Shown here: in pieces, positions 13,674 to 52,095 of the stretch
Position numbering within the stretch: position 1 is the first letter of the stretch
How the letters are laid out: the number at the start of each line of letters is the position of its first letter
Source: a virus
Lineage: Duplodnaviria > Heunggongvirae > Uroviricota > Caudoviricetes
DNA: 64,000 nucleotides
IMG/VR virus record: IMGVR_UViG_3300020576_002769
Coordinates: 17,985 to 81,984 of that record
Direction: 5' to 3' (one strand)
Position numbers and translations under genes: made by a program
Notes under the pieces: generated by a model
Database searches by the model: none
Told to the model about the DNA's origin: nothing
Seen by the model: only the letters and a program-made list of their open reading frames with translations

Positions 13674-14288
13674 TCAATCAAATCGAATTATTCTATATTC
13701 CTCAGTATTGGGATAAAATTCAACATTCTCATCATACTCCTCTTGTGATAAACTACGACACTTATCCAAAATATCCTTAATACCTCCATTACAAATGGTA
13801 TATCCTCGTTGAACATATTTCTGAACTCTCCTTAATGAATCAAATACATACAAAGGTTCCAAATGATTTATAACAATCCTCTTATGATGAACATCCAATA
13901 ATCCCGATGGACTACATAACACCTTCTCACCATCATACATAAACTGACATACCGTAAAATCAAACGAATCCAAAATACTCTCAAAAGTTTCATACTCCCG
14001 ATATATAATCTGAACCTTAATCTTCCCCTTCTTATAGGTCCTCAAGTTATCGTTGAAATAAACCAACCGATACCCCTTACCCTTAGTCAAATTCAAATTA
14101 ACAAATTCATCCAAGTCAGACTTACTCAATCCAAAGATATCAATATCATTGTACTTCTCACCAAATAAACTATCCCGAACACTCCCACCGGCAATAACAA
14201 CATTCAACTTCTTACCATCAACATCCTCAAACTTGAAGTCAGGTAGTTTAACCAACAACCCCTCCTTAGGTAATTCACAATATTTCAT
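13674..14288 (-). CDS. minimal class-II (Pol-beta superfamily) nucleotidyltransferase, CCA/poly(A)-polymerase head-like
   Basis: VVIAGGSVRDSLFGEKYNDIDIFG (GGxVRD..D.D) plus a degenerate RRDFTxNA-like SFDFTVCQF. Confidence 0.55.
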   Translation of the reverse strand: MKYCELPKEGLLVKLPDFKFEDVDGKKLNVVIAGGSVRDSLFGEKYNDIDIFGLSKSDLDEFVNLNLTKGKGYRLVYFNDNLRTYKKGKIKVQIIYREYETFESILDSFDFTVCQFMYDGEKVLCSPSGLLDVHHKRIVINHLEPLYVFDSLRRVQKYVQRGYTICNGGIKDILDKCRSLSQEEYDENVEFYPNTEEYRIIRFD

Positions 14289-17776: not shown

Positions 17777-18131
17777 ACATCTCCACCTGATGTAGGGAAT
17801 GTTCCCTTATCTCCATATTGACCTTATTTAAATCCCCCTCGTTAAGTGGGGATTTTTTGTTTATCTCATCTATCACCCCGGACATATCACAATGGGTCAT
17901 AATTAATACCTCCTGTTTTATTCTGTTCCCCACTCTTGTTAGGACATAATGACAGGTTCCCATTCCATAATCTACCACATAGGTTTCTCCGGATTGTATA
18001 ACTGAAGGTTTTTCGTTGTTTAGGTACCCCGTCGGAAACGTGTTTTCGTACATATAATTTCTTTTATTATAAGTATATAAAATTGGGTTCTCGATGTAAA
18101 GAGGGGGAATTGTCTGTGTCAGATTTTCCAT
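17748..18131 (-). CDS. hypothetical protein
   Basis: ORF of 127 aa. A palindrome lies immediately upstream of its ATG. Confidence 0.4.
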   Translation of the reverse strand: MENLTQTIPPLYIENPILYTYNKRNYMYENTFPTGYLNNEKPSVIQSGETYVVDYGMGTCHYVLTRVGNRIKQEVLIMTHCDMSGVIDEINKKSPLNEGDLNKVNMEIREHSLHQVEMFIRGRGHHQ

Positions 18132-50300: not shown

Positions 50301-51041
50301 TTATTGTTCCATTGTTGGTTTTAACCATAACCCACTATCTTTGAAGATGTATGTTTTTAATGTTGGAAATTCATTAAGAACTTTTAAGGTTTCCAAGGTG
50401 TCGTGTTTGAAACACTTAAATAATTCCTCCCTAATTCTTTCGGTTGACACCACACTCATCTTTTCATCGTAATTATAAGATTCGATTGTGAGTGCAATTG
50501 TTCCCGGAATCGTAAATCCTTTTGTAATTGAGAATCTGATTGCTCTTAAAATTCTAAGCGGGTCATCATTAAAAGTCACTTCAGTTGGCAACGGAGTTCT
50601 TAAAATTTTATCTCTTAAATCTTCAAGTCCATTGAAGAAGTCGATAATTTTACCATCCTCATCTTTAGCTAAAGCATTTAATGTAAAATCTCTTCTTTCC
50701 AAATCATCATATAATGTCCCTGGCTTAACGATTGGTGTTCTTGTTCCCGGAATGTATCCAACTTCTTTACGAGCCATTACGAAATCCGCAACCCCACTAT
50801 ACTTGTGGTCTTTTGGGAACATCGCTCTAATGGTAAAACAATCCGGAGTGATTAAGAAAATTTCAAATTTAGTTTCACGTAAGAATGTAACTAAAATTTC
50901 AAACATTTCCTCAGCTTCGGTATATTGAGATAATAATGAGTCATTAGGTACCGCAACGTAATCCACGTCTTTGGATTTAAGACCTAAAATCTCATCTCTA
51001 ACTTTTCCACCTACCTCGTAAAATCTAAATAAATTCTCCAT
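50301..51041 (-). CDS. truncated class-II tRNA nucleotidyltransferase (CCA-adding/poly(A)-polymerase head+neck)
   Basis: YEVGGKVRDEILGLKSKDVDYVAV, TIRAMF, ARKEVGY..GTRTP, DDLERRDFTLNALA, DFFNGLEDLRDKILRT, DDPLRILRAIRFSITKGF. At 246 aa it lacks the body and tail domains. Confidence 0.8.
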   Translation of the reverse strand: MENLFRFYEVGGKVRDEILGLKSKDVDYVAVPNDSLLSQYTEAEEMFEILVTFLRETKFEIFLITPDCFTIRAMFPKDHKYSGVADFVMARKEVGYIPGTRTPIVKPGTLYDDLERRDFTLNALAKDEDGKIIDFFNGLEDLRDKILRTPLPTEVTFNDDPLRILRAIRFSITKGFTIPGTIALTIESYNYDEKMSVVSTERIREELFKCFKHDTLETLKVLNEFPTLKTYIFKDSGLWLKPTMEQ

Positions 51042-51306
51042 CTCTTTTAATTATATAATGGTTTGATTGGTATGATACATTTTCTCTACCTGATTCACTA
51101 CCAAATAAGTTACATTCAATTATACATTTTTCACCAGTAACTTTGATGGTATTAGTGTCTTCATCAATCTCAACATTTACATTATAATGTTTCTCAAAAT
51201 TATAATAATTTGATGTCTCAATCGTTAAGGTTCCATTATGAATGGAAATACCACATTTTTCAAAAGTTAAATTTGTTTTTGACATATTTTCTAATTTACC
51301 GGACAA
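51025..51306 (-). CDS. hypothetical protein
   Basis: ORF of 93 aa between the Thg1-like and CCA-like genes. Confidence 0.4.
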   Translation of the reverse strand: MSGKLENMSKTNLTFEKCGISIHNGTLTIETSNYYNFEKHYNVNVEIDEDTNTIKVTGEKCIIECNLFGSESGRENVSYQSNHYIIKRDGEFI

Positions 51307-51327
51307 AGGTATAAAAAAAATCCCGAA

Positions 51328-52095
51328 CTAAAAATTATTCGGGATTAAATTTTCTAAAAATTCTCTATCTTGGGTAAATACAGGTGTTTCAACCAACTTC
51401 CACTTACTTCTTGGGAATGTTACGTCACCCTGGGTTATCTCAACTTGAACTTTCGTAATCACCCCACCACGTTTTTCCCGGAAATCATAATCATTCCAAT
51501 TAATTCCCTTTTGGAAAATCATTTCTTGTTGTTGATTACCATTCTTTCCGTTTAATTCCTTTGGAGAATATAAACTCTGAGCCACAGATGCAATTGAGTT
51601 TCTCACCGCGTCTTGTTGTCTCCAATATAAATAATTCAACACCTCAACCTTTTGTGGTATTTGGAAGACACGAGCATCAAACTCAGCCATTCTGAATTGT
51701 TTAATATCATAAACACTCATCGGTAATACCCCCCCCATTAATCTTAATCGGTTAAACTCTGATGTCGCCATTGACGCAGCAACACTACACATCTTCTGAA
51801 GGTTATTATCAAACCAAGCCTGAGTTGAGATGTCCTCAAAATCTGTAATCACAATCGATATTTCATCTGACTGAACGTAAGCCAACTTGGCACCCATAAT
51901 ATTTTTACACAGGTATGCCGCAGTTGCGTTCATATCCTCAATCAATCGTCTATCAAAAGGTCTATTCAACCCTTTTGTATATGTGTGGAACGCTTTACCA
52001 TCAATTCTAATTACGGTATAACTTCTCCTTGGTAACGAAATCCTTGTGCGGTTTTCGTAATTTTCTTTCATTCTATTTCCTAAATCGTCTCTCAT
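51328..52095 (-). CDS. Thg1-like protein (tRNA-His guanylyltransferase family, 3'-5' polymerase)
   Basis: Collinear with human THG1: YTVIRIDGKAFHTYT ~ VVVRLDGRNFHRF. PFDRRLIEDM ~ PNDSRALQLM. LAYVQSDEISIV ~ IAYGQSDEYSFV. FDARVFQIP ~ FDGRVVVYP. YLYWRQQDAVRNS ~ YLSWRQADCHINN. Confidence 0.85.
   Translation of the reverse strand: MRDDLGNRMKENYENRTRISLPRRSYTVIRIDGKAFHTYTKGLNRPFDRRLIEDMNATAAYLCKNIMGAKLAYVQSDEISIVITDFEDISTQAWFDNNLQKMCSVAASMATSEFNRLRLMGGVLPMSVYDIKQFRMAEFDARVFQIPQKVEVLNYLYWRQQDAVRNSIASVAQSLYSPKELNGKNGNQQQEMIFQKGINWNDYDFREKRGGVITKVQVEITQGDVTFPRSKWKLVETPVFTQDREFLENLIPNNF

Follow-up and report, generated by a model that had tools for sequence, protein, structure and literature searches.

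Jumbo phages have been described as carrying RNA ligases, PNK-HAD proteins, RlaP nucleotidyltransferases (NTases), CCA-adding enzymes, sporadic Thg1 and PTH2 (Iyer et al. 2021, Viruses 13:63; PMC7824862, section 3.4.9). The rationale given for this RNA repair set was that it counters host RNases targeting tRNA (PMC7824862). Phage Thg1 and a linkage of Thg1 with polynucleotide kinase (PNK) had already been noted by Anantharaman et al. 2010 (PMC2904730), and CCA-adding enzymes were listed in huge phages by Al-Shayeb et al. 2020 (PMC7162821). Here we analyzed a stretch of 64,000 nucleotides (nt) from an uncultured phage of the Caudoviricetes (IMG/VR record IMGVR_UViG_3300020576_002769, positions 17,985 to 81,984), which we refer to at its full length as the window. 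In it, a gene for a Thg1-like protein (TLP) lies near a gene for a short class II tRNA nucleotidyltransferase of the CCA-adding type (the short CCA protein). Both gene families are routinely annotated in phages, and the reading of such genes as a repair toolkit with a counter-defence role is already published. The inventory of the window resembles the jumbo-phage set of Iyer et al. in that a ligase, PNK-HAD, an extra Pol-beta NTase, a CCA enzyme, Thg1 and PTH2 are also found here. It differs from that set because the ligase is truncated, the extra NTase falls outside PF10127 (RlaP), and the Thg1 and CCA genes are neighbours by chance.

The Bacillus thuringiensis TLP (BtTLP) performs templated 5'-end repair of truncated tRNAs of any identity, at 5-160 fold over -1 addition, and templated 5' addition was shown for both BtTLP and MaTLP (PMC3061083). 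TLPs are independent of the tRNA-His anticodon, and one of them acts on many mitochondrial tRNAs in 5'-editing (PMC6471195). Phages go unmentioned in this 2019 TLP review.

We consider it probable (roughly 0.6) that the window encodes two independent, catalytically intact auxiliary enzymes for tRNA-end maintenance, among the genes that large phages carry for RNA repair and translation support. The two genes and the open reading frame (ORF) between them are as follows, with protein lengths in amino acids (aa):

51328..52095, minus strand: TLP gene, 255 aa, predicted bacterial/archaeal-type 3'-5' nucleotidyltransferase

50301..51041, minus strand: short class II tRNA nucleotidyltransferase (CCA-type, predicted), 246 aa, head and neck, C-terminal WLKPT

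51025..51306, minus strand: small intervening ORF, 93 aa from TTG or 86 aa from ATG at 51285 (the source-contig call)

The ORF at 51328-52095 belongs to the Thg1/TLP superfamily, and within it to the TLP subclass; its activity is predicted from the sequence. It matched PF04446 over profile positions 3-130 of 130 (7e-29; 100.8 bits, cutoff 29.2) and PHROG 4717 ('tRNA-His guanylyltransferase') at 3e-86. A phmmer search against the PDB placed residues 3-251 on residues 2-237 of the chain of 4KGK, the BtTLP structure, at 7e-63 and ~50% identity. Matches to 5XOX, 3WBZ, 5AXK and 3OTB were weaker, and eukaryotic Thg1 scored far below 4KGK. A reading of the window made earlier from its letters and ORFs only (the sequence-only reading) had recognized the Thg1/TLP catalytic core here. 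These matches bear it out, and the full-length match to 4KGK places the protein inside the Thg1 fold. The motifs VIRIDG, QSDEIS, FDARV and YLYWRQQD can be read in the translation. When 60 unique phage homologues were aligned together with BtTLP, the catalytic residues D32, D77 and E78 proved invariant, and so did R30, S76, R159, Q160, D162 and N166.

The site of the eukaryotic anticodon-recognition motif HINNLYN reads VRNSIAS in the phage TLP and SKNSISM in BtTLP (aligned stretches: phage TLP, WRQQDAVRNSIAS; 5XOX, WRYVDTHINNLYN; BtTLP, WRQQDASKNSISM). Because HINNLYN is replaced, as it is in BtTLP, we assign the phage protein to the bacterial/archaeal type. The phage protein and BtTLP (4KGK/4KGM) are collinear over their full length and share the D/DE triad and this TLP-type site, but the phage TLP is encoded by an uncultured low-GC phage. 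Its closest homologue from a cultured phage is 50.6% identical, and the nearest relatives in IMG/VR reach 72%.

TLPs of the PHROG 4717 type are annotated in 164 phage records, for example in Bacillus Bastille-like phages, XacN1, GAP32, CcrColossus and Lak phages. They are common in phages of Alphaproteobacteria (Caulobacter 13, Brevundimonas 7, also Sinorhizobium and Agrobacterium). Some alphaproteobacterial hosts have a tRNA-His without G-1. In the Mycobacterium phages Kalah2 (gene 116, L217), Klein and Bombitas, the TLP gene is labelled 'tRNA nucleotidyltransferase', and this mislabel could conceal TLPs from annotation-based surveys.

The second enzyme has its closest described counterparts among the class II enzymes of A. 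aeolicus (1VFG/4WC2), T. maritima (3H37), P. halocryophilus (6QXN) and G. stearothermophilus (1MIV). It has the same head and neck fold (Foldseek E ~1e-14, ~29% identity) and motifs A-E, including GGxVRD..DxD, RRD and (E/D)DxxR. The difference is in the rest of the protein: the phage enzyme has 246 aa, compared with 340-520 aa, is without the body and tail that hold the tRNA T-arm and elbow, and ends in WLKPT. The ORF matched PF01743 (PolyA_pol head) over profile positions 2-126 of 126 (7e-18), and PHROG 24229 ('tRNA nucleotidyltransferase') over 242 of 245 profile positions (1e-60). GGKVRD...DVD, RRDFTLNA and DPLRILRA can be read in its translation. Among family members at 45-53% identity, the residues of motif A (G11, G12, R15, D16, D25 and D27), motif B (R116, R117 and D118), motif C (D134..G138), motif D (D160 and R163) and motif E (R202..E206) were invariant. 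Position 159 is D or E in these members, and D159 here. Residues 28-115, the span between motifs A and B that contains the flexible loop, are present.

All PDB matches of the ORF were to class II CCA-adding enzymes, A-adding enzymes or poly(A) polymerase (PAP), and A-adding and CCA-adding enzymes scored alike. Alignment breaks off at the neck, near residue 250 of enzymes that are 390-500 aa long; residues 7-233 of the phage protein, for example, pair with residues 37-247 of the T. maritima enzyme, which has 441 aa. An AlphaFold2 model of the protein (pLDDT 89.5, pTM 0.83) was compared with known structures by Foldseek, and the top 46 matches were all class II CCA-adding or A-adding enzymes or PAP, with E values of ~1e-14 to 1e-9. 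TM-scores were 0.63-0.70 when normalized to the query and 0.35-0.49 when normalized to the targets. The sequence-only reading had seen a class II head and neck with no body or tail, and the stop of the PDB alignments at the neck, the asymmetry of the TM-scores and the length of the homologues all agree with it. The protein consists of head and neck only, and CCA addition is its predicted activity, judged from the motifs and the model.

Homologues of this protein number more than 7,100 (metagenomic), and each of the 120 best has a length of 240-248 aa. The form with head and neck only is therefore not a truncation accident. We place the protein in the class II catalytic superfamily and in the short subfamily PHROG 24229; its architecture is not the canonical one of four domains. 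Cultured-phage members of PHROG 24229 (Cellulophaga phi17:2 gp32, Microbacterium Big4 gp255 and Synechococcus B23 gp209) have 243-248 aa, are 45-47% identical to the short CCA protein, share its motifs and C-terminal motif, and are annotated as tRNA nucleotidyltransferases. We found no substantive difference between them and the protein studied here. An enzyme of head and neck only that has more than 7,100 relatives poses the question of how tRNA is bound without the canonical binding domains.

The C-terminal peptide (M/L)WLKPT.E (window positions 50301-50330), compared across L219, L220, L221, L003 and L004, is kept in the short family, and L240 and T243 are invariant at 45-53% identity. It is missing from the long-form homologues and is a low-confidence part of the AlphaFold2 model. 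This peptide may be a candidate partner-binding or RNA-binding element in place of the body and tail.

Both enzyme ORFs lie on the minus strand, are co-directional, and have one small ORF between them. The stop of this small ORF and the start of the CCA gene overlap by 17 nt. The order of Thg1, 86-aa ORF and CCA genes was also present in an independent Logan assembly (L084), and because the three-gene order is identical there, the arrangement is not an assembly artefact. No match of the locus was found by megablast among 50,697 phage records, so the phage is without a close cultured relative. The window is part of a JGI metagenome contig of 106,033 bp (sample 3300033069), and a contig of 114.8 kb falls in the cluster of the identical CCA protein. 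The GC content is ~30% across the window; the minus strand holds most of the genes, and the majority are without known function. The small ORF had no Pfam or PHROG match, nor did the ORF downstream of the CCA gene.

We profiled the linkage of the two enzyme genes in two sets of IMG/VR loci. The first consisted of 80 loci with Thg1-like homologues at 42-72% identity, many of them on contigs of 120-446 kb. The second consisted of 80 loci with the closest CCA homologues, at 66-86% identity. Of the 80 Thg1 loci, 14 had a CCA gene within 10 kb, on either side and with gaps of 1.9-9 kb. A Thg1 gene lay within 10 kb of the CCA gene in 4 of the 80 CCA loci, with gaps of 1.3-8.4 kb. The two genes were adjacent in none of the 160 related loci, and both gene orders were found. 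Roughly estimated, loose synteny or a random placement of the genes in genomes of 100-370 kb would lead to similar rates. By tblastn, the small intervening ORF was present in 0/80 Thg1 loci and 2/80 CCA loci, and it is therefore not a conserved partner. We also considered a conserved partner protein for the CCA enzyme that lacks body and tail, and rejected the neighbours orf93, orf130 and orf149, which are not kept beside CCA or Thg1 homologues. The two genes had been called a module. With a partner within 10 kb in so few loci, no case of adjacency, and intervening and flanking ORFs that are not conserved, this term has to be dropped. The near-adjacency of the TLP and CCA genes is a lineage-specific gene order and not a conserved two-gene module or operon.

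The company of TLP genes in cultured phages varies. A PF10127 (RlaP) NTase gene lies 3 kb from the TLP gene in GAP32, a gene for a full-length CCA enzyme 6 kb from it in CcrColossus, and a polynucleotide kinase gene 0.6 kb from it in the mycobacteriophage Kalah2. In Bacillus phage Bc431v3, the TLP neighbourhood is without annotated tRNA or RNA-repair genes. This variable company fits a general theme of RNA-end maintenance, and not a specific two-gene system.

Further genes of possible relevance to RNA repair were found elsewhere in the window:

21763..22680, plus strand: Pnkp (bifunctional polynucleotide kinase-phosphatase), 29 kb off; HAD_PNKP 1e-39, AAA_33 8e-18, PHROG 505 1e-82

21335..21766, plus strand: RNA ligase remnant; of the nucleotidyltransferase domain only the C-terminal part is left (PF09414 positions 78-171 of 171)

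13674..14288, minus strand: second Pol-beta-type NTase; PHROG 4400 9e-21, PHROG 1614 8e-17

24028..24276, minus strand: protein of 82 aa with a marginal PTH2-like motif in its N-terminal part; PF01981 5e-6 over 20 residues; PHROG 31188 (function unknown) 4e-13

The sequence-only reading had seen in these genes, together with the TLP and CCA genes, an unusually complete tRNA repair toolkit. The T4-type Pnk that it placed at 21763 is confirmed by the HAD_PNKP and PHROG 505 matches. The RNA-ligase-like fragment at 21335 is a fragment indeed, without the N-terminal adenylyltransferase half. The minimal NTase at 13674 stands as a Pol-beta-type enzyme by its PHROG 4400 and 1614 matches; its PolyA_pol match is limited to motif A (0.0022). 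An RlaP identity was considered for this NTase and rejected, as there was no PF10127 match. The PTH2 at 24028 is weak, resting on 20 residues. The toolkit of the window is less complete than had been claimed, because the ligase is a remnant without motif I and the PTH2 is marginal.

A six-frame search for K.DG.N, and for a relaxed version of it, found neither a K-x-(D/H)-G-x-N motif nor an ORF with the motif I lysine near the ligase remnant. There was no intact ligase among the 9 of 10 window ORFs of at least 300 aa that have family-search or precomputed Pfam information. The first 25 residues of the remnant are the start of an unrelated small non-ligase ORF that lies, in the syntenic IMG/VR contig L088, 3' of the repeat array described below. 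This L088 ORF is paralogous to the one that precedes the array in the window (20842-21240, plus strand). The start shared with a non-ligase ORF suggests that deletion, fusion or recombination destroyed the ligase. In phage T4, Pnkp and Rnl1 heal and seal the tRNA-Lys cleaved by PrrC. The window has a bifunctional Pnkp as well, but no functional ligase was detected in it, and Thg1 and CCA enzymes act at tRNA termini and not at anticodon-loop breaks.

We examined the tRNA genes of the related loci for a need of end processing. Arrays of up to 20 tRNA genes were present in 12 of the 80 CCA loci, 3-10 kb from the CCA gene. The 3' CCA was encoded by 24 of 168 phage tRNA genes (14%; loci L006-L044 and L152-L212), and 86% were without it. 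In contrast to the rest, most tRNA-His genes in the related loci have G-1 as well as CCA encoded. The contig L008 (9184-11845), from a related jumbo phage, has its TLP gene within an array of 11 tRNA genes. A tRNA-His gene with G-1, C73 and CCA all encoded starts there 11 nt past the TLP stop and 18 nt past the end of the TLP match.

A role at tRNA termini is reasonable in view of what the nearest characterized homologues do, and we infer the tRNA substrates and the purpose of the two enzymes as follows. The TLP would activate a tRNA end carrying a 5'-monophosphate with ATP or GTP, and would then add missing 5' nucleotides in the 3'-5' direction, with an undamaged 3' strand of the stem as template. 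Alternatively, it would add G-1 opposite C73 of tRNA-His. The short class II NTase would add or restore C74, C75 and A76 in an untemplated reaction. The pair, Pnkp and another NTase would then be members of the loosely scattered RNA-end maintenance set that has been described for jumbo and large phages. During infection, such a set would complete tRNA transcripts that lack CCA and mend eroded or clipped ends, so that the tRNAs can still be charged. The suggestion that the pair could rebuild both strands of a damaged acceptor stem was overstated. CCA enzymes add positions 74-76 only, untemplated, and cannot restore the 3' strand of the stem, and a TLP needs that strand intact as its template.

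Several observations weigh against this account. In every class II enzyme of solved structure, the tRNA elbow is bound by the body and tail; the short CCA protein is without them, and might therefore have a different substrate or a low affinity. No tRNA gene was detected in ~82 kb of the contig (the window and ~9 kb of flank on each side; also with Rfam), and maturation of the phage's own tRNAs is therefore not demonstrable here. All 5 tRNA-His genes within +-10 kb of the relatives' TLP genes encode G at -1. So do 11 of the 12 tRNA-His genes with a good acceptor stem in both locus sets, and C73 is present in 12/12. Since tRNA-His genes mostly encode G-1, its addition is not obviously needed. 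The literature searched yielded no experimental work on phage TLPs or on short phage CCA enzymes.

The sequence-only reading had suggested counter-defence against a host nuclease that attacks tRNA termini or acceptor stems. In its strict form this would be a dedicated module: the TLP and the minimal CCA enzyme would jointly reverse clipping of the CCA tail or acceptor end, of the Cas12a3, HEPN-MNT or retron Eco2 type, and Pnkp would fix the end chemistry. We regard this as unlikely here. We know of no defence nuclease that attacks tRNA 5' ends, which counts against it, and the adjacency of the genes is not kept across the 160 related loci. Restoring the 3' strand of the stem is beyond a CCA enzyme, so a nick of the Eco2 type, 6-7 nt upstream of the CCA, would be left unrepaired by the pair, and the RNA ligase that might seal nicks is a remnant. 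The phage is also uncultured and comes without host or defence information. On the other side, the two genes are co-directional in the window, with a single small ORF between them that overlaps the CCA start. Defences that cut the tRNA tail or acceptor stem are documented: Cas12a3 and retron Eco2 have been described, and HEPN-MNT was reported as clipping CCA tails (PMC12851939, PMC12916289). Counter-defence against tail-attacking nucleases has become more plausible since these descriptions, and the tail-clipping systems are concrete opponents for cultured phages that carry TLP or CCA genes. Pnkp can supply the 5'-phosphate that a TLP needs, in line with the Thg1-PNK linkage in PMC2904730 and in Kalah2, and the ~82 kb without a tRNA gene weaken own-tRNA maturation in this phage. 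Still narrower is the idea of a dedicated acceptor-end repair pair, in which the TLP and the CCA enzyme lacking body and tail work via the WLKPT peptide or the intervening ORF to evade Cas12a3, HEPN-MNT or toxSAS-like effectors. It is improbable; if true, it would be the first physiological role of a TLP outside eukaryotes, and a new class of phage counter-defence aimed at tRNA ends and not at the anticodon loop.

Pure maturation would have the CCA enzyme complete CCA-less phage tRNA transcripts at high flux, with the TLP securing G-1 of tRNA-His or correcting imprecise RNase P 5' ends of clustered precursors. With 86% of the relatives' tRNA genes lacking an encoded CCA, this is as plausible as counter-defence, and we hold it to be unlikely as well. 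The tRNA arrays near the CCA gene in 12/80 loci and the L008 TLP gene inside an array, directly upstream of tRNA-His, speak for it, and XacN1, CBB, Bacillus phage G, phiCbK-like and Lak phages, all TLP carriers, are presumably rich in tRNA genes. However, the window and its flanks are without a tRNA gene, G-1 and C73 are nearly always encoded in the good-stem tRNA-His genes, BtTLP favours truncated tRNAs over -1 addition, hosts have their own CCA enzymes, and the TLP gene of Bc431v3 has no annotated tRNA or RNA-repair genes around it. A function outside tRNA was also considered, in which the NTase, and possibly the TLP, tails transcripts, modifies small RNAs or disturbs nucleotide-based immune signalling. 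One Dictyostelium TLP acts also on a non-tRNA substrate. The missing elbow-binding domains would suit such a function, the conserved, low-confidence WLKPT peptide suggests a partner interaction, and TLPs work independently of the tRNA-His anticodon, one of them on many mitochondrial tRNAs in 5'-editing (PMC6471195). Even so, it is very unlikely, because the nucleotide-selecting motif D (D/E-D-x-x-R) is invariant, as is the ribose-selecting motif B (RRD). The best structure and sequence matches are all to tRNA-acting enzymes or PAP, and the gene context does not connect them with signalling or defence.

The repeat array beside the ligase remnant is a separate feature of the window:

21111-21331, plus strand: probable phage-borne mini-CRISPR array, immediately upstream of the ligase remnant

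Its 36-nt repeat, GGTGGAGGAACATTATAAATTAAGGGTAACAACAAC, occurs in three exact copies and one degenerate terminal copy with an exact period of 66 nt, and the three spacers of 30 nt each are all unique. The syntenic contig L088 (9698-10047) has five full repeats and an identical degenerate terminal copy. The two spacers nearest the degenerate repeat are common to L088 and the window, whereas the other end has three different spacers in L088 and one in the window. A spacer difference polarized to one end in this way is characteristic of genuine CRISPR arrays. No cas genes were linked to it in the window, where no ORF exceeds 679 aa. The repeat had no Rfam CRISPR-DR match and no stable hairpin. 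The array pattern had no matches in 185k genomes; a relaxed pattern gave 46 single matches, close to a rough chance estimate. The repeat core had no matches in the metagenome collection, and no protospacers for two of the spacers were found in IMG/VR. The array is probably an orphan phage-borne mini-array. Its 36/30 geometry and its ...GGGTAACAACAAC end may resemble type VI-B (Cas13b) repeats, which is a lead only.

Genes resembling homing endonucleases are dense in this phage (12458-13012, 13099-13659 and 15008-16093, and in the flanks L085 and L086). The types seen include GIY-YIG, T5orf172, endonuclease VII/HNH, LAGLIDADG, and an I-TevI-like gene beside thymidylate synthase. This density is consistent with frequent disruption and shuffling of genes in the phage.

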